The notes beneath the pieces were generated by a model. It worked only from the letters and a program-made list of their open reading frames with translations. It searched no databases and was not told the origin of the DNA. From Candidatus Omnitrophota bacterium (GTDB lineage Bacteria > Omnitrophota > Gorgyraeia > 2-01-FULL-45-10): 64,000 nt of DNA. Each line of letters starts with the position of its first letter. Position 1 is the first letter of the stretch. This document shows positions 26,303-59,839 of this stretch, in pieces. The stretch covers positions 13,379-77,378 of the forward strand of contig JAGVGJ010000003.1 of NCBI GenBank assembly GCA_020057115.1, read 5' to 3'. Position numbers and translations under genes: made by a program.

Positions 26303-26326
26303 GCTTCATTACACCAAAATAATCGC

Positions 26327-27454
26327 TTATGCTTTCCTGATTTTCCTTACCGCAAGCCCGATCGCTGCACCGAGGAATGATATGATAGTTGAAGGTTCCG
26401 GCACTCCTGGTGATGGCGGCGGTTCACTAAAGTGATCGCCGGCGGTGCCTTGATATAAGCCATCCTCAATTACCCGATTATTGCCATAGCCCGCAATCCG
26501 GTCTGGAAGGGGCGGAGCATCAAAATAAAGAATAGGTTCCCAGTTCCCTCCAGAAAACGTACCATTTACTGTAACAAAAAGAGTTGTCATATTATAATAA
26601 GTGTCTTCATCCATAGATCCAAAAACTGTTGTATACCATTCGGAAGCCATAGGACCTGTCGATACACCTGTCAGGCCTGTTACCCCGTTCATAGTGAAAG
26701 ATACGTGAAGGCCGAGTCCGTCTTCAGTATAAAGAGAGGTATCATAATCATACGGCGTCAGCATTGAAAAAACACCAGTGTTCATATCCGCGTCATACTC
26801 ATATTTATAAAGAAAGCCGCCGAGCACGGGGCCGTCAGTCAGCCATCCATCAGATAAAACACCGTATGTATCGTCCCATCGGCTACCGCCTTGATACTGG
26901 GTACTCTCTACAGACCCGCTACCGCTGAGCTGTGTTAAAGTCCCCTCATTATAATCCCATTGCACCGGCCCGGAAGGATCAGTATCATAGTCAGGCCCGT
27001 GGAGCACAAAAGTCGAGAAATTCAATTTCCAGCCGGAGCTTACCGCATCTGCAAAATTCACATCCACTGCCAAAGGATTCATAAGATCTCTCTCCGCGGT
27101 TCCGGTAAATGAAACCGGGCTCGGGGCATTAATGGTCAAGGTTGCGGATCCCGGTACATTTATCTCCGATTGCCAGAAACTAAGGTCCCAGCCATAGCCA
27201 TTTAAACCCAGATCCGGGCCTTGCTGTTGTGTGAGAAGGAGCGGATTAGGATCATCCTGGGGCACTTCTACGCTGCCATAATAGTCATACCAGCCGGTCC
27301 CGTAAGTTAAAGAGCCGTGATCGCTATCCCAACAGGATACAAGTGTAAACTGAGTATCCGTACCACCGCCACCGCCACCACCGCCTGCGATCGCAGGAAC
27401 CGTGAAAGCCAGCATAAAGCCTATAGCCATCATCGTTATCAGTATGTTTTTCAT
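26327..27454 (-). CDS. PEP-CTERM sorting-domain secreted protein
   Basis: Start trimmed to MKNILITMMAIG (GAAGG RBS); poly-Gly linker; C-terminal VPEPSTIISFLGAAIGLAVRKIRKA = PEP-CTERM motif, TM helix and basic tail. Confidence 0.75.
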   Translation of the reverse strand: MKNILITMMAIGFMLAFTVPAIAGGGGGGGGTDTQFTLVSCWDSDHGSLTYGTGWYDYYGSVEVPQDDPNPLLLTQQQGPDLGLNGYGWDLSFWQSEINVPGSATLTINAPSPVSFTGTAERDLMNPLAVDVNFADAVSSGWKLNFSTFVLHGPDYDTDPSGPVQWDYNEGTLTQLSGSGSVESTQYQGGSRWDDTYGVLSDGWLTDGPVLGGFLYKYEYDADMNTGVFSMLTPYDYDTSLYTEDGLGLHVSFTMNGVTGLTGVSTGPMASEWYTTVFGSMDEDTYYNMTTLFVTVNGTFSGGNWEPILYFDAPPLPDRIAGYGNNRVIEDGLYQGTAGDHFSEPPPSPGVPEPSTIISFLGAAIGLAVRKIRKA

Positions 27455-27483
27455 TTTATCGCCTTCAACCTTCTGCAAGCCAA

Positions 27484-27516
27484 TAAAAAATCCCAACCTT
27501 CAAAAAGATTGGGATG
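27484..27516 (-). terminator. intrinsic-terminator-like hairpin in 5' leader (expression platform candidate)
   Basis: Minus strand AUCCCAAUCUUUUUGAAGGUUGGGAUUUUUUAUU located between conserved leader motif and RBS. Confidence 0.5.
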
Positions 27517-27527
27517 CAAAGCAATGA

Positions 27528-27613
27528 CTCGCGTTTTACGTTACGCTTATAAACGGCAACTGGCTGCCATCGTCCTCTCGGACTTTAGGCCCTATAGCTT
27601 TGCGTCCACACCC
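27528..27613 (-). ncRNA. conserved PEP-CTERM leader motif, copy 1 (candidate cis-regulatory RNA)
   Basis: Shares ...CAGGGCCUAA-[hairpin]-AUGGCAGCCAGUUGCCGU-...ACGU.AAA.CGAG with copy 2; hairpin GUCC-GAGA-GGAC here versus UCUCC-GUA-GGAGA in copy 2 (compensatory). Confidence 0.5.
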
Positions 27614-27843
27614 TTTCGAGTGGTTTGCGATTTATACACCGTCAAAAAGAACATACTTCTTCGTTCTAATTATAGAATACACTATATTGTATGTTAAGTC
27701 AATAGAAGCTTTGCTGCCTATTTTCTCGCCACCCTCAGATGATCTATTTTAACACCTTATAGTCAAGCAAAAACAGAGCATGCATATCACGCCCAATATT
27801 ATCATTTCTGTTATGAATATTTCCTTTCCGTTTCTCGTAATTA

Positions 27844-30800
27844 TCATTTTTGTTTTTTGCATATACATCCTCTCCTTTTTAAAAGTCTTCGATAACCGAG
27901 CATAAAAATACCGCTTATTATACTCACGACCGTCGCCGGCTCAGGAACTGAATTAAGAGGCTCGGGATCTCCCTGGTTGCTATAATAAGGATTACCCAGC
28001 GAAAAACCTGTAAATGAAGTGCCTCCTGTTATGGTGACGAGCTTGTTAACCTCATCTATGCTTGTGGTGGTGAACTTATGCCACAGGTTATCGCTACCAT
28101 AGTGGTATACGGTGAGGTCTGCCGGCAATATGCCTAGTGAGTTTAACAACAGCTCATCATACCTGAAGATTATGTCGACAGAGCCGAATACAAGCGACGG
28201 CGCTTCATCGCCAGGATTCTCGCCCCAGGTATATGTGTGAGCCCCTGACGCTACCTGTATGGCCGGGAGGGTCAGCTTACCTTGATTGGTGGCGAACCAT
28301 CCGTTTGTTGTGGTGTTGTCTATGGTATTCGTGACGCTTGCAAAGCCTGACATATCAAGCGTGCCGCCGTCAGCTATTATGCGGCCGTTATTGGTAAGGG
28401 TGCCTGTCATGCCTACAGCGCCTTGGCCCTGGAAGATTCCTGCTACGTCACTGGTATTTCTCACGACAAGATTACCCCCGCTTAATCCATCGCCGCTTAG
28501 GGTGAGTATTCCTGTGCCGCTATTTCCGATGATAACATTTCCGGCGGTAAGCGTCTTTCCGCTTGCCAGGGTGAACGAGCCGGTCGTGCTTGCAGCATTA
28601 CCGACATTAAAGTTCTCTATACTGATATCATTACTTGATAGCGCGAGCATTCCGCCGTCCATATTAATGGTGCCTGTGCCTGCAATATTATTTATGGATG
28701 TGGCATTAAGCGTCCCGCCGCTGTTTAGGTTCAATGTGCCTGTGCCGATAGTGACTACTTTGGCATTAGCCGTATCGCCTATATTCGCAACTGCGCTTGT
28801 AGCATCTATGGCGACATTGTTCGTAGCTTGCGGTATCACCTGAGGATTCCAGCTTGAGGCGCTTGACCAATTGCCTGTAGTCGTGTTCCACACTAGGTCC
28901 CCAAATGAGAATGTGAGTACTAGGTTTGTGCCTACTACGTTCTTGGTAAAGCTGCCTGAGCCGAACTGGTTGTCTATGGATGAGGTATCCGTAAAGCTCT
29001 TAGATAAATCCCACGAGAGGATATTAAAGGTATTGCCCTCGGCTATAGACCATGTGCCATACTTGGCTATCCTTAATGTGCCGTCTAGGCTTACATCTCC
29101 TCCGTTAACGTCTATGGTGTCATAGTATTGGCCGGGGGTCCCGCCTATGCCGCCGAGCTCGAATATTATAGTACCTGAATTTGTGAAGTTGCCGTTTATC
29201 GTGGTAAGCCCGGGTGAATTACCTGGAGACAGCGTGCCGCCTGACTGCACATTCAATGCGCCGTTAAATGTGTTCACGCTTAACGTGCCGCCTGTGAAAT
29301 TAAAGGCACTTGTGCCTGAGCCTCTTGTTATCGTTGTAGCCTTCAGATATCCGCCTTGGAGGTCATAGGTGCCGCTTGAGCCGACGTTATTACCTAAAAT
29401 AATAACGCCTGCCTGGTTCGTGCCACCTGTCTGAGTAAATGTGCCTTTGCCGGAAGCGCCGATATATTCAGTCTTGCCGGTTGCGTCAAGTAAGCCTGTC
29501 CCGGAAAGTGAATAGACGCCTGTGGCGCCTGCAGCGGAACCGATAGTGAGCGTGCCTTTCACTGAGGTGACGCCGGCTGACTGGGTGTACGTGCCGTTTG
29601 CACCGGCGCCGTTATACCCTATGCTGATCTGATAAGCATCGTTCGTGCCGCCTGTCTGGGTGAATGTGCCCTTACCCAGGTTTCCGATATATTCATATAA
29701 AGTTTTAGAATCAATGTAACCTGTGCCGGAAAGATTATAACTGCCTGAGGAGCCTGAGGCATTGCCTACATTCAGGGAACCTGCGCCTCCTGATAATATT
29801 TTGGCCGTTCCGCCTGACTGCGTGTAAGTGCCGTTTGAAAGGTTATTATTACCTACATTAATAATTTTTGCCTGGTTGGTGCCGCCTGTCTGGGTGAATG
29901 CGCCTGTTCCGGTGGATCCTATGTTTTCGGTTGCATTTGTCCCATCTATAAGGCCTGTGCCGGAGAGAAAATAACTGCCTTCGGAAGTGCTGTTATTGCC
30001 AACGTAGAAGGCGCTTGTTACTGTATTTGTCCCGCCCGACTGGGTGTATGTGCCGCTTGAACCTGAACTATTACCTATATATATAGTAGCCGTCTGATTC
30101 GTACCACCGGACTGAATTAGAGTGCCTTTTCCGGAATTGCCGATGTATTCCGTAGGAGCTGAAAGGAAGCCACCCGACACAGAATATGTTCCTGAAGATC
30201 CTGACAGATTGCCAACGCTGAATGTGCTTATTCCTTTATATGTCCCGCCTGTCTGTGTATATGTGGCGTTTGAGCCGGAAGAATTACCGATATTTAAATT
30301 AGATACAGCCATGGAATTGGCGGTCAATGTGAATGTGCCGCCGTCTATATTTAAAGTACTTGTGCCCACAGGAGCTGCTATTGCATTTGTTACGCTTAGC
30401 GCTCCGCCGCTTAATGTATATGTGCCGTTGCCGCCTGTACCTGTCGCGAGACCTAGCGTCGCGGCAATATTAGTGTCGCCTGATTGGGTGAATGTGCCTG
30501 CGCCTGAGGTACTTATAGATTCACTGGTTGTTGTCAGCGTGCCGCCTGTCATATTGATATTGCCGCTATCGCCTGAATTTTGGGCGAGATATAAATTAGC
30601 CGCGGCTGCTCCGGCAGTCGTGATGGACACTGTCCCGCCATTATTAATAGAGACGGCGTCCGAACTTGTGGGCACACCGGTCGTCCAGCTGCCAGAAGTA
30701 CTCCAATCGTCTGTAGTCGCTTGCCACATATTATTGTCATAGCCGATCGCGAGGTCGCCTGTAAAAGCAGCGACACTGCCAAAACTAGTCGTAGTCAACC

Positions 30801-32277
30801 AATTATTCGTAGTATCAACACTTGAAGTAACATCTGCCCATGCGCTGCCATTATACCGGTAGATCTTTAGGTTAGCCTCATGCGAACCTGCCAATAGATC
30901 ATCGTACCTGAAAATGATATTTGTTGAAGTGGCCGTAAAACTTGCAGGGACAACGTTGTAGTAACTTATCAAAGTGCTTGTTGCGAGCGGATGGATGTCG
31001 GAGGTCCTATCAAGAGAAAGAAGCGACATGGTCAGTGATCCGGAGGCACCTGATTCCCCTGCGAATGTAAATCGAGCGCTATTGACAAGGTCTATAGTAG
31101 TATCACTGGGAGCCTCCCCCCAATTGTAAGAACCATTTCCTGTTATCGAAAGTGCCTTCAAGGTCAGCTTACCTTTATTCTGGGCAAACCATCCGTTCGT
31201 CCCGCCTGTAGTCGGATTCTCCATGGTATTTCCAATGCCATTTACGACATTTGCAAGACTCAAAGTCTGTTCAGCGCCATAGCCATCAGCGATAACGCGG
31301 CCGTTATTGACGAGCGCGCTATAAGTCACTGTAGGCGAGCCGTATCCCATGAGTGTGCCTGAGGCTCCTGCATCCTGGCGAACAGTCATGCCAACGTTGG
31401 ATATAAATGTTCCGCCTTTAAGTTCGTATGTTCCGCTTCCGCTGGCACCAGCTCCTATATAAACGTTTCCTACCCCCACCCGATTAGTACCGCCCGTCTG
31501 GACAAATCTGCCGCTGCCAGATTTACCTATATATTCACTCGCACTAGACGAAAGGTCGCCTCCGGATAAAATATAAGTACCTGCGGCGCCTGCCTCTGAG
31601 CCGATCATAAGGCCGGTACTTGTTATTCTGACTGTCCCGCCAGATTGGGTGTATGTGCCGCTTAAGCCGCTGTAAAAACCTACGGTAATATTAATCCCCT
31701 GGTTCGTGCCGCCAGTTTGAGTAAATGTGCCTGTTCCGTTACTACCGATGTATTGAGCTGCGGTGGTAGTTGTATCTAAAATACCTGTGCCGGAGAGAGA
31801 ATAACTGCCTTTAGAGCCAGCGCCATCGCCAAGGTAGAGTGACCCTGTTACTTTGTTTGTCCCGCCTGATTGGGTAAATGTGCCTGTACCGTATTGGCCT
31901 AAAGTTTCATAATACACCGTTAGATTGCCGGATGTCATGTTCACGGTTCCGGTGGTGCCAGCAAATTGGCCTAAAGTGAGATCATACGTGGCTTCGCTTG
32001 GCTGCGTGATATTTACTATGCCATTGTTATTTACTTTTGAATAATCACCGGACGCCGGTTCTGTGCCTCCCCAGTTGGAGCCCGTGGACCAATCGCCCGC
32101 ATTGCCGGCAGCTCGCGACCAAACTCTAGTTGCCGCGACAGCGGGCGGGGCATGTACCATGGCTATTAACGATATGACCATAAAAATTCCGATGCTAAGA
32201 GTAGCGATCTTTCTAAACAATGCCCTCACCCCTTTCAGGTTTTTGTGAATCATTTTATTTGTTGATCTATTTTTCAT
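27844..32277 (-). CDS. giant PEP-CTERM protein (1477 aa) with about 40-aa Gly/Thr/Ser-rich beta-strand repeats
   Basis: Start trimmed to MKNRSTNK (AGGA RBS); signal peptide; more than 20 repeats of GTFTQ(S/T)GGTN...; C-terminal VPEPATVVSIISGIFMLGYRRLLKRR PEP-CTERM. Confidence 0.8.
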   Translation of the reverse strand: MKNRSTNKMIHKNLKGVRALFRKIATLSIGIFMVISLIAMVHAPPAVAATRVWSRAAGNAGDWSTGSNWGGTEPASGDYSKVNNNGIVNITQPSEATYDLTLGQFAGTTGTVNMTSGNLTVYYETLGQYGTGTFTQSGGTNKVTGSLYLGDGAGSKGSYSLSGTGILDTTTTAAQYIGSNGTGTFTQTGGTNQGINITVGFYSGLSGTYTQSGGTVRITSTGLMIGSEAGAAGTYILSGGDLSSSASEYIGKSGSGRFVQTGGTNRVGVGNVYIGAGASGSGTYELKGGTFISNVGMTVRQDAGASGTLMGYGSPTVTYSALVNNGRVIADGYGAEQTLSLANVVNGIGNTMENPTTGGTNGWFAQNKGKLTLKALSITGNGSYNWGEAPSDTTIDLVNSARFTFAGESGASGSLTMSLLSLDRTSDIHPLATSTLISYYNVVPASFTATSTNIIFRYDDLLAGSHEANLKIYRYNGSAWADVTSSVDTTNNWLTTTSFGSVAAFTGDLAIGYDNNMWQATTDDWSTSGSWTTGVPTSSDAVSINNGGTVSITTAGAAAANLYLAQNSGDSGNINMTGGTLTTTSESISTSGAGTFTQSGDTNIAATLGLATGTGGNGTYTLSGGALSVTNAIAAPVGTSTLNIDGGTFTLTANSMAVSNLNIGNSSGSNATYTQTGGTYKGISTFSVGNLSGSSGTYSVSGGFLSAPTEYIGNSGKGTLIQSGGTNQTATIYIGNSSGSSGTYTQSGGTNTVTSAFYVGNNSTSEGSYFLSGTGLIDGTNATENIGSTGTGAFTQTGGTNQAKIINVGNNNLSNGTYTQSGGTAKILSGGAGSLNVGNASGSSGSYNLSGTGYIDSKTLYEYIGNLGKGTFTQTGGTNDAYQISIGYNGAGANGTYTQSAGVTSVKGTLTIGSAAGATGVYSLSGTGLLDATGKTEYIGASGKGTFTQTGGTNQAGVIILGNNVGSSGTYDLQGGYLKATTITRGSGTSAFNFTGGTLSVNTFNGALNVQSGGTLSPGNSPGLTTINGNFTNSGTIIFELGGIGGTPGQYYDTIDVNGGDVSLDGTLRIAKYGTWSIAEGNTFNILSWDLSKSFTDTSSIDNQFGSGSFTKNVVGTNLVLTFSFGDLVWNTTTGNWSSASSWNPQVIPQATNNVAIDATSAVANIGDTANAKVVTIGTGTLNLNSGGTLNATSINNIAGTGTINMDGGMLALSSNDISIENFNVGNAASTTGSFTLASGKTLTAGNVIIGNSGTGILTLSGDGLSGGNLVVRNTSDVAGIFQGQGAVGMTGTLTNNGRIIADGGTLDMSGFASVTNTIDNTTTNGWFATNQGKLTLPAIQVASGAHTYTWGENPGDEAPSLVFGSVDIIFRYDELLLNSLGILPADLTVYHYGSDNLWHKFTTTSIDEVNKLVTITGGTSFTGFSLGNPYYSNQGDPEPLNSVPEPATVVSIISGIFMLGYRRLLKRRGCICKKQK

Positions 32278-32304
32278 TTTTTTCCTGGACCCTAAAACAA
32301 AGAT

Positions 32305-32378
32305 CCCAACCACGCATACTGCATGATTGGGAGTTAAAATAAAAATCCCGACCTACATTTCTAGATCGGGAGATAAAA
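32305..32378 (-). terminator. two tandem intrinsic-terminator-like hairpins in 5' leader of giant PEP-CTERM gene
   Basis: CUCCCGAUCUAGAAAUGUAGGUCGGGAUUUUUAUUUU then CCCAAUCAUGCAGUAUGCGUGGUUGGGAUCUUUGUUUU, immediately before the RBS. Confidence 0.45.
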
Positions 32379-32380
32379 AC

Positions 32381-32468
32381 TCTCATCTCGCTTTCACGTA
32401 AGCAAATACGGCAACTGGCTGCCATTGTCTCCTACGGAGAGTTAGGCCCTGTAGTTTTGCCACGCCAT
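32381..32468 (-). ncRNA. conserved PEP-CTERM leader motif, copy 2
   Basis: See copy 1; identical 18-nt core AUGGCAGCCAGUUGCCGU; near-identical promoters (TTAACA-17-TATAAT versus TTAACA-17-TAGATT) upstream of both. Confidence 0.5.
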
Positions 32469-32659
32469 ATTATTTGATTGGCGCGATCCCGCGCTATTCG
32501 TAGGGATGTCGCCGGGTTTCCCCGGGTTTGCTATTATCCGAAACACCTAAAGAACAATGCCAAGCTCGATCACAAATCTAGTATATCTTATAATCTATGT
32601 TAAAGCAATAGAAACCTAGCTTCCTATTTCCGTGTTAACGGGTGATTGGAAAAAGATAA

Positions 32660-32698
32660 AATCCGTAAAAATGGCCCCGGGTTTTCCCCGAGGCCATT
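32660..32698 (-). terminator. Rho-independent terminator of groEL
   Basis: AUGGCCUCGGGGAAAACCCGGGGCCAUUUUUACGG. Confidence 0.65.
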
Positions 32699-32737
32699 TG
32701 CTTTCTTACAGCTTAAAGCTTATAGCTTAAAGCTTTT

Positions 32738-58717: not shown

Positions 58718-59839
58718 CTATTTGAATCCGCTCATTATTTCTGCATTTTCGAGGGCGACCGCCGCGCTAGCGGCAAGGCCGTGGAGCATGAACATGTCGA
58801 GGACGTCAAAGGGGTGCTTTTCGAGCTTGTTATATATCTCGAAACAGCCGAGGAGGACTCCCTTCCTGCTTATTATGGGCGCTGCGGCGACATTATAAAA
58901 ACTGACATCTCTGCGGACATCCTGAAGGACATGGGGATCGCGCGCGGCATCATTGGTATAATACGGCCTCATCGTCTCCGCCACCCATCCGGAGATGCCC
59001 TCGCCCCGCTCGAAAGAATACTTTACCGGGAAGACTTTGCCTTCTTTATTATATTCCGTGAAGACCATCTTCTTGTCAATGGACAACCCCGCCATGCCGC
59101 CCTCCGCGCCCACAAGCTCCATCGCCGAAGCAATGAGAATCCGCATGATGATCGGCACTTCCAGGACGGCATTTATGTGAACGCTCGTGCGCGAGAGGAC
59201 CTCAAGCTGGTAGTCGCGCCTAAGAAGAGCCTCTTCGGCTTTCTTGCGGTCGGTTACGTCGCGGATATATTCGATGACGCCGGCGATCCTGTTGGTGGCA
59301 GGATCTACGAGCGGATAACTATATATATCGAGCCATCCCGCATTCTCGCCTTTAGGGCCTATCTTCTGGACAATATCGTGGGCGGACTCGCCGGTCTGCA
59401 AAGTCTTGTATGTAGGGCATACTTCGCATATGGCCTTCCGCCCGTGGTATGCTTCATAGCATTTCTTTCCGACAAGAGGCATGGCGTGTTCATACCACTT
59501 CTCCATGGCCGGGTTGACGCGGATGATGTTCATGTTCTTGTCGAGGATGCTTATGCCGTCCTGGATGCTTGTAAATACGCTCGAGAGGAATGCTTCGTTC
59601 TTCTGGAGAGCCGCCTCTGCGCGCTTGCGCTCCTCGATCTCGAGGACCATCGGACGGAACAGGAACAGATATAATGCCGGAGAGAGCAGCGTGATGGACA
59701 TAAGGGCGTCGAGGAAGACGTTATATCTTACGCGTAAGAACGGTATAAAGATGAAGAGCGTTATGACCAGCGCTTCGCATATGATTATAGACAAAGTGAT
59801 CGTTACCAGGACCGATGTCGGGGATAGCCGCTTTACCAT
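58718..59839 (-). CDS. membrane-anchored PAS-GAF sensor protein without output domain
   Basis: Two TM helices, PAS (about aa 80-190), GAF (about aa 200-370). Confidence 0.65.
   Translation of the reverse strand: MVKRLSPTSVLVTITLSIIICEALVITLFIFIPFLRVRYNVFLDALMSITLLSPALYLFLFRPMVLEIEERKRAEAALQKNEAFLSSVFTSIQDGISILDKNMNIIRVNPAMEKWYEHAMPLVGKKCYEAYHGRKAICEVCPTYKTLQTGESAHDIVQKIGPKGENAGWLDIYSYPLVDPATNRIAGVIEYIRDVTDRKKAEEALLRRDYQLEVLSRTSVHINAVLEVPIIMRILIASAMELVGAEGGMAGLSIDKKMVFTEYNKEGKVFPVKYSFERGEGISGWVAETMRPYYTNDAARDPHVLQDVRRDVSFYNVAAAPIISRKGVLLGCFEIYNKLEKHPFDVLDMFMLHGLAASAAVALENAEIMSGFK

Follow-up and report, generated by a model that had tools for sequence, protein, structure and literature searches.

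We analysed a 64,000-nucleotide (nt) stretch of contig JAGVGJ010000003.1 from a Candidatus Omnitrophota bacterium (hereafter the window), concentrating on two neighbouring minus-strand genes for secreted PEP-CTERM proteins and on the leaders that precede them. The smaller gene (26327–27454) encodes a 375-amino-acid (aa) protein, which matches TIGR02595 with 20.9 bits against a cut-off of 16. The larger gene (27844–32277) encodes a 1477-aa repeat protein which, judged by its translation and by the names of its homologs, is adhesin-like, with the C-terminal sequence VPEPATVV...RR. Both proteins carry a signal peptide and a C-terminal sorting signal of the form VPEP-hydrophobic-basic, in line with an earlier note on this DNA that described both of them as PEP-CTERM cargo. 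The leader block of each gene is a member of the GEMM-I, or cyclic di-GMP (c-di-GMP)-I, riboswitch family. We consider it very probable that both are GEMM-I riboswitch leaders working through transcription termination.

The window was scanned against Rfam at curated thresholds, which returned two tRNAs and two matches to RF01051, the c-di-GMP-I/GEMM-I riboswitch aptamer. Copy 1, upstream of the smaller gene, matched at 27552–27639 on the minus strand with 70.8 bits (E = 7e-12 for the whole window) over model positions 1–87. Copy 2, upstream of the larger gene, matched at 32407–32476 on the minus strand with 36.9 bits against a gathering score of 35 (E = 1.4e-3 for the whole window). The copy 2 alignment also spans model positions 1–87 but treats the entire first hairpin as deleted, and the score is marginal because the model skips this hairpin, which is displaced. 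The motif is present before both PEP-CTERM genes and nowhere else in the window. Each aptamer lies on the same strand as its gene, between a promoter-like site and a signal-peptide PEP-CTERM gene, the 5' position that is expected of GEMM-I for extracellular, membrane or motility genes. The class was first described in 2007, with extracellular proteins as typical targets (PMC1950547).

The leader elements that the earlier note had described as shared were found again on the minus strand. The 18-mer ATGGCAGCCAGTTGCCGT is identical in both copies (27553–27570 and 32408–32425), but it lies near the RF01051 family consensus, so that its identity is weak evidence. The first-hairpin pattern GCAAAC-N5-GAAA-N6-7-GAC occurs twice in the 64 kb, once per leader, against 0.00 expected. 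A broader pattern, GGGCCTAA-N8-24-ATGGCAGCCAGTTGCCG, has matches in at least 118 genomes of Bacillota, Omnitrophota, Planctomycetota and others. The sampled aptamers referred to below were drawn from these listed genomes, which are mostly Bacillota and do not include the source genome. Four of the loci, from metagenome-assembled genomes (MAGs) of Bacillota (L001, L030, L093 and L116), hold tandem GEMM-I aptamers in one leader, about 200 nt apart (about 430 nt in L116), an arrangement known for this riboswitch class.

The copy 1 aptamer extends over 27548–27639 on the minus strand and scores 96.1 bits with a lineage-specific covariance model, in addition to its Rfam score. It is closed by the helix UAUAAA/UUUAUA. 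The first hairpin (27602–27628) has a GAAA loop and reads GC-AAA-CCACUC-GAAA-GGGUGUGG-AC-GC, and the second hairpin (27558–27599) contains a tetraloop receptor and is followed by the GCCG tail. The AAA linker between the hairpins, almost invariant across the family, is found as GC-AAA-GCUA in copy 1 and GC-AAA-ACUA in copy 2. The receptor, CCUAAA...GAUGG in copy 1 and CCUAAC...AAUGG in copy 2, aligns to the CUAAg...uAuGa columns of the model, and in both copies it is predicted to dock with the GAAA loop of the first hairpin.

The internal hairpins that the earlier note had read as compensatory covariation, GUCC-GAGA-GGAC in copy 1 and UCUCC-GUA-GGAGA in copy 2, form the distal stem of the second hairpin of the aptamer, and the changes between them are genuinely compensatory. 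An alignment on an Rfam-based structure was made of both window copies together with six aptamers from Omnitrophota. The GEMM-I fold pairs 83% of the cells in this alignment, compared with 30–43% when partners are slid, and 11 pairs have changed on both sides; none of 500 shuffles reaches the observed values. Pairs were counted on the Rfam-based structure because RNAalifold, run on eight Omnitrophota-type sequences, recovered the two hairpins but mis-paired the outer region.

Upstream of each aptamer lies a predicted sigma-70-like promoter, and downstream lie intrinsic terminators. A consensus scan bore out the promoter pair proposed earlier, TTAACA-17-TATAAT at 27669–27697 (11 of 12 matches, predicted start about 27662) and TTAACA-17-TAGATT at 32575–32603 (9 of 12 matches, predicted start about 32568), both on the minus strand. 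The terminators are likewise those that had been described, one in leader 1 and two in leader 2, all on the minus strand. The leader 1 terminator (27485–27515) has an 11-bp stem (27515–27490) followed by U6, at -13.1 kcal/mol. In leader 2, T1 (32336–32371) has a 10-bp stem (32371–32346) followed by UUUUUAUUUU, at -15.3 kcal/mol, and T2 (32294–32332) has a 13-bp stem (32332–32304) followed by UCUUUGUUUU, at -18.9 kcal/mol. The same stem core, UCCCRAUC...GRUYGGGAU, recurs in all three, and T1 and T2 could therefore pair with each other in alternative ways, the 3' arm of the former being largely complementary to the 5' arm of the latter. In both leaders the terminators are well downstream of the aptamer and do not overlap its 3' side, unlike the overlapping layout that is a common ON design among GEMM elements (PMC1950547). 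Thus, the layout is that of a riboswitch, as had been suggested: a ligand-sensing aptamer, then intrinsic terminators, then the ribosome-binding site. Attenuation by a leader peptide was rejected, since the 20-codon open reading frame (ORF) of leader 1 lacks a ribosome-binding site at the proper spacing and nothing equivalent exists in leader 2. A local hairpin in leader 2, GAGAUGAG/UUUAUCUC, was rejected as an antiterminator since it overlaps T1 by only 2 nt.

The leader of copy 1 contains a potential switching strand, GCUUUGCAUCCCAAUCUUUUUG (27501–27522, minus strand), which consists of the terminator 5' arm and linker and can pair either with the aptamer core CGAAAGGGUGUGGACGCAAAGC (27597–27618) or with the terminator 3' arm. 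Its duplex with the aptamer core is predicted at -23.0 kcal/mol (z = -3.3), a value reached by 5 of 1000 dinucleotide shuffles. The two competing folds lie within 2.2 kcal/mol of each other at the decision point, with -56.3 kcal/mol for the terminator and -54.1 kcal/mol for the antiterminator. When the transcript is folded up to the terminator loop, before the 3' arm exists, the antiterminator is the minimum-energy fold; when the aptamer is locked, the predicted fold keeps the full terminator. The terminator starts about 33 nt downstream of the closing helix, so aptamer and terminator can coexist. We propose that the cyclic-dinucleotide level would decide whether transcription reaches each cargo gene. 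In copy 1 without ligand, the switching strand would pair with the aptamer core as it emerges from the polymerase, forming an antiterminator and allowing read-through. With ligand bound, the aptamer would be locked, the strand would be left free, the terminator would form and the gene would be off. On these predicted folds we lean, at a little better than even, towards copy 1 being an OFF switch of the type seen in Cd1 from Clostridioides difficile.

Copy 2 differs in that its first hairpin lies 47 nt farther upstream than expected. This hairpin, GCAAACCCGGGGAAACCCGGCGAC (32508–32531, minus strand), belongs to the pattern found only twice in the window, directly follows the base at position 20 (an A), and is identical in every letter to the corresponding hairpin of a canonical aptamer in another sampled locus (L073). 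The second half of the aptamer (32407–32460, minus strand) comprises the closing GC, the AAA linker, the second hairpin with its receptor, and the GCCG tail, and falls within the region that scores 36.9 bits with RF01051. Between the two halves lies a 47-nt insert (32461–32507, minus strand) made up of two abutting hairpins, AUCCC...GGGAU and CGCGCCA...UGGCGUG. Its predicted fold has a minimum free energy of -14.3 kcal/mol (z = -2.5) and leaves no spare nucleotides. The order in copy 2 is therefore GC-AAA-CCCGGG-GAAA-CCCGGC-GAC, 47 nt, and the closing GC, which agrees with the consensus only if an insertion is allowed. The earlier description of a shared block of roughly 85 nt stands as to the block but not as to its length in copy 2, where the element, on the minus strand, reaches about 148 nt once the first hairpin is counted.

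We built a sequence profile from 115 canonical aptamers among the matches listed. With the insert removed, copy 2 scores 64.2 bits on this profile and copy 1 scores 63.3, whereas the Rfam-aligned region of copy 2 scores 41.4. The lineage-specific covariance model spans copy 2 at 32401–32548 with 54.2 bits, a score that is supportive but not independent, since the spliced copy 2 sequence was in the training set of the model. By its sequence, then, copy 2 is an aptamer with no part missing, split by a unique insert of 47 nt and two hairpins. Flanked by the GAC bulge on one side and the closing GC pairs on the other, the insert falls in the internal loop of the first hairpin and would turn this loop into a four-way junction. 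No further copy of the insert was found in the window or in any fetched locus, which rules out a repeat or mobile element as its source among these sequences. Complementarity exists between the insert's 3' part and the conserved 3' strand of the aptamer (AAUAUGGC with GCCGUAUU), and this pairing appears in minimum-energy folds; if formed, it could disable or gate sensing.

Comparison with other aptamers reveals few parallels to this layout. Among about 125 sampled aptamers from the matches listed, only one, in an Omnitrophota MAG (L041:3692–3825, minus strand), matches the layout of copy 2. There Rfam spans a comparable insertion, giving a 134-nt match of 42.4 bits. About 41 extra nucleotides forming two hairpins follow its first hairpin, and AAGGAUG is duplicated at the ends of the insert. 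Downstream are a strong terminator and then convergent genes. We read L041 as a riboswitch that is an orphan or a relic, or else as a possible small RNA. A metagenome scan for the split-type junction TGGCAAARCTANAGGGCCTAA gave one chance match in eukaryote-like DNA (L120) and no other split aptamers. A different arrangement, with two extra hairpins inside the first stem, occurs at L005:270–411 (plus strand, 40.6 bits with RF01051), L010:4344–4485 (plus strand), L109:4554–4696 (plus strand) and L060:950–1092 (minus strand). The arms of the inserted hairpins covary between these loci, each of which lies upstream of an orthologous gene for a 141-aa prepilin-like protein, and the MAGs that hold them are labelled Omnitrophota, Planctomycetia (two) and Deltaproteobacteria. 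Their sequences show that a structured module can apparently be accommodated by the domain in what seems to be a functional setting, and they may represent an unrecognised structural variant.

We compared the ligand-contact positions of both copies with the published roles of these bases. A47, the first A of the AAA linker, and C92, in the GCCG tail, contact the ligand (PMC6140456) and are present in both copies. The canonical G20, which reads the Hoogsteen edge of one c-di-GMP guanine (PMC6140456), is absent from both, with C at this position in copy 1 (AAAU-C-GCAAA) and A in copy 2 (AAU-A-GCAAA). Position 20 could be assigned in 118 aptamers among the matches listed and is G in 73, A in 39 and C in 6. 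Judged by these counts, a base other than G at position 20 is natural variation of the family and does not remove the copies from it. The likely ligand is c-di-GMP, although affinity or specificity may be shifted, since both copies lack G20.

Several observations weigh against reading the two leaders as working c-di-GMP switches. Neither copy has the base that reads one of the ligand guanines (PMC6140456), and the 64-kb window holds no GGDEF or EAL gene for c-di-GMP turnover and no exosortase gene. The positions of the transcription starts are predicted from a consensus, and the promoters of this phylum are uncharacterised. In copy 1 the complementarity signal comes largely from one 7-mer, GCUUUGC with GCAAAGC, and the terminator arm alone gives z = -1.2. 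Since the full-length minimum-energy fold of leader 1 already includes the terminator when no ligand is present, any action of the antiterminator would have to be kinetic. The OFF assignment depends on nearest-neighbour folding. In copy 2 we found no antiterminator complementarity to either terminator arm, whether the insert was kept in or looped out (z from -0.4 to +0.9), and in the folding model its tandem terminators look unconditional. The closing helix of copy 2 is weak in the canonical register, and L041, its only close structural parallel, has no same-strand gene downstream and is thus weak evidence that the split layout works. In both copies alike the canonical fold is suboptimal to the minimum-energy fold (by 7.7 and 10.9 kcal/mol), so that this comparison does not discriminate between them. 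The earlier note had seen in the leaders a riboswitch or attenuator class not described before and dedicated to PEP-CTERM or exosortase cargo. In favour of it, the motif stands before both such genes and nowhere else in the window. The proposal has next to no probability left, being refuted by the Rfam match over the full model; the same pattern precedes pilins and other unrelated genes in at least 118 genomes, two homologs of the large cargo protein have no aptamer, and the two leaders have no leader peptide in common. If copy 1 were an ON switch, its ligand would favour read-through, and high c-di-GMP in a sessile or biofilm state would induce the surface proteins. Induction by c-di-GMP is common for matrix and adhesion proteins. 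The terminator is in competition with the aptamer's 3' side in 78 of the 322 original GEMM examples (PMC1950547), and most transcripts with c-di-GMP riboswitches in Methylophaga are higher in biofilm (PMC12530212). We nevertheless regard an ON switch as unlikely, given that the terminator stands clear of the closing helix, that it persists in full when the aptamer is locked, and that its sole significant competitor is a helix which would destroy the aptamer.

For copy 2 an alternative is that the insert has broken the aptamer and left a disabled relic, with the 1477-aa gene governed only by its promoter and an operator, and with either two constitutive terminators or a protein antiterminator. 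The Rfam score barely above threshold, the missing antiterminator, the weak closing helix, the possible trapping of the conserved 3' strand by the insert and the orphan state of L041 would all fit such a loss. Against it, every conserved element is intact (the GAAA-loop first hairpin, the AAA linker, the tetraloop receptor and the GCCG tail), and the score without the insert equals that of copy 1. The insert amounts to exactly two hairpins with zero spare nucleotides, as for a tolerated module, and four genomes have kept another two-hairpin insertion, of a different kind, in this domain upstream of a pilin-like gene. We therefore give the relic a substantial probability that stays short of even, and place the prediction that copy 2 still senses its ligand at about even odds. 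A more specific proposal, which we put forward tentatively and think rather improbable, is that copy 2 is a working member of an unrecognised GEMM-I subclass, in which a two-hairpin module within the first hairpin turns the internal loop or stem into a four-way junction. Its members would be copy 2 and L041, with the module on the 3' side, and L005, L010, L060 and L109, with the module inside the stem, from Omnitrophota, Planctomycetota and related MAGs. If this were true, the module of copy 2 could act as a built-in competitor that tunes or gates sensing, with the non-G position 20 altering specificity. That position also raises the question of whether the aptamers sense 3'3'-cyclic GMP-AMP (3'3'-cGAMP) or are bispecific, in the manner of GEMM-Ib. 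The A20 of copy 2 and the C20 of copy 1 replace the canonical G, and G20A RNAs bind both c-di-GMP and 3'3'-cGAMP, while natural A20 riboswitches of Geobacter sense cGAMP (PMC6140456). However, A20 is common (39 of 118 among the matches listed) and found mostly in Bacillota, published A20 variants are often bispecific rather than cGAMP-selective (PMC6140456), and replacing the equivalent G of Cd1 by A or C has no large effect on binding (PMC9262584). No gene for a cGAMP synthase is visible in the window, and we hold cGAMP sensing to be improbable, with c-di-GMP the more likely ligand.

The motif thus belongs to an already-known riboswitch class, and its pairing with PEP-CTERM genes has already been reported in Methylophaga (PMC12530212), whereas the earlier note knew of no cis-regulatory RNA described for such cargo. 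Nor is the motif specific to PEP-CTERM genes, as that note had implied: none of the 112 genes downstream of aptamers with the same pattern is PEP-CTERM-like, among the matches listed, and the pairing is uncommon on this count. What appears unusual at this locus is the split aptamer with its non-G position 20, and the apparently different expression platforms of two homologous leaders, which form a natural pair for studying platform divergence after duplication. For Omnitrophota, an uncultured phylum, the locus documents predicted control of adhesin-like PEP-CTERM cargo by riboswitches for cyclic dinucleotides. Copy 2 and the pilin-associated variants further suggest that the first hairpin of GEMM-I can host a structured two-hairpin module. 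Annotation probably under-counts such insert-bearing aptamers, because standard models score them near or below threshold.

Comparison of the two cassettes upstream of their promoters identified a further shared element. A 24-nt inverted-repeat motif lies directly upstream of the -35 element on the minus strand in each, AAATAGGCAGCAAAGCTTCTATTG at 27700–27723 in cassette 1 and AAATAGGAAGCTAGGTTTCTATTG at 32606–32629 in cassette 2, as seen by alignment and pattern count. Its pattern, AAATAGGNAGCNNNGNTTCTATTG, occurs in the window only at the two cargo promoters (2 against 0.02 expected), and its inverted repeat is AAATAGG.AGC...TTCTATTG. The motif may be a shared operator for a DNA-binding regulator, which would add control at the protein level to the riboswitches. 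A sigma-54 promoter was rejected as an explanation of the motif, since its GG/GC spacing, inspected by eye, is unlike GG-N10-GC.

Both cassettes lie within a lineage-specific island of about 6.35 kb (26305–32660, minus strand), whose breakpoints were taken from alignment with relatives. The island sits between a retained groEL terminator (32667–32699) and a retained guaB3 promoter. Three relatives (L123, L124 and L127) have the gene order valS-nadC-uvrB-birA-coaX-groES-groEL-guaB3-dnaE, with groEL followed directly by guaB3, and their corresponding regions hold neither a GEMM-I aptamer nor the island. Many Candidatus Omnitrophota proteins share 88–91% identity with the GroEL encoded in the window. 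A protein look-up placed the window on a 205-kb contig (Ga0394675_107183) of JGI metagenome 3300038439, and exact-sequence searches with the 375-aa protein, its 383-aa variant, GroEL and the nearest homolog (P0004) gave no match. We saw no integrase or transposase, and no repeat flanking the island. Homology between the leaders begins at about -60 and continues through the terminator. Since the two cassettes are homologous from end to end, with the motif and the terminator core in common, we conclude that whole cassettes have been duplicated. The absence of the island from relatives suggests that promoter, riboswitch, terminator and cargo gene can move or duplicate as a unit.

The cargo proteins themselves have few relatives. 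The 375-aa protein finds only itself among 5.8 billion clusters, and only itself among 1.84 billion representatives in an exhaustive HMMER search; by both of these very large searches it is a true orphan. Directly after its predicted signal-peptide cleavage site come eight glycines in a row. The 1477-aa protein has no match in Pfam or NCBIfam, and its sorting motif, VPEPATVVSIISGIFMLGYRRLLKRR, was recognised by eye only, without a hidden Markov model match. Its homologs are named T5SS/PEP-CTERM-associated repeat or autotransporter-associated beta-strand repeat proteins, of which the nearest is 37% identical. No orthologs were found in the collections searched, and no GEMM-I aptamer lies upstream of the large cargo homologs L121 and L122. 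The longest ORFs of both genes start inside the leader terminators, at TTG 27496 (389 aa, also the JGI call) and at GTG 32313 (1489 aa). Starts at ATG 27454 and ATG 32277 are more plausible because they have ribosome-binding sites and the signal peptides begin there; judged by these features, the public annotation probably makes the small protein too long. The only signalling-type protein seen in the window is a 373-aa PAS-GAF protein (58718–59839, minus strand), with no recognisable output domain at the threshold used.

Finally, we compared the two copies to known GEMM-I systems. The structural reference Vc2 from Vibrio cholerae (PDB 3IRW) and the window copies have in common the three-helix architecture with a GAAA tetraloop docking into its receptor (predicted for the copies), the AAA linker, in which the intercalating A47 lies, and the C92-bearing GCCG tail. 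Relative to Vc2, copy 1 has C and copy 2 has A in place of G20, and copy 2 contains, after the GAC bulge and before the closing G45-C46 pairs, a 47-nt insert of two hairpins that Vc2 lacks. The GEMM-Ib switches of Geobacter (Gs1761, pilM), which respond to 3'3'-cGAMP, have the same fold and, like copy 2, an A at the position equivalent to G20, whereas copy 1 has C20. They also control extracellular proteins by means of a terminator, as would be the case here (PMC6140456, PMC9262584). However, the Geobacter riboswitches are ON switches whose terminator overlaps the aptamer, unlike the copies in the window.

Cd1 of Clostridioides difficile, an OFF switch upstream of flagellar genes, resembles copy 1 in having a terminator distant from the GEMM-I aptamer. 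In Cd1 the aptamer can form alongside the terminator, and each is in competition with an antiterminator in which the terminator 5' strand pairs with part of the aptamer (PMC9262584), an arrangement that is predicted for copy 1 as well. As a difference from Cd1, the antiterminator of copy 1 would invade the 3' strand of the first hairpin and the junction, and not the 3' end of the aptamer alone. Copy 1 also differs from Cd1 in having C instead of G at position 20 and in its target, a PEP-CTERM protein in the Gram-negative-type Omnitrophota, and its mechanism is predicted here from folding. The closest parallel for the cargo is Methylophaga nitratireducenticrescens GP59. The riboswitches of this gammaproteobacterium lie inside an exopolysaccharide gene cluster (PMC12530212), whereas the cassettes in the window form an isolated islet among Omnitrophota housekeeping genes, with no exopolysaccharide or exosortase genes nearby. 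In both organisms, several copies are found close together with one riboswitch per gene, and riboswitches 4–7 of GP59 are each placed beside a PEP-CTERM or VPLPA-CTERM gene (PMC12530212), the same pairing that we describe here.

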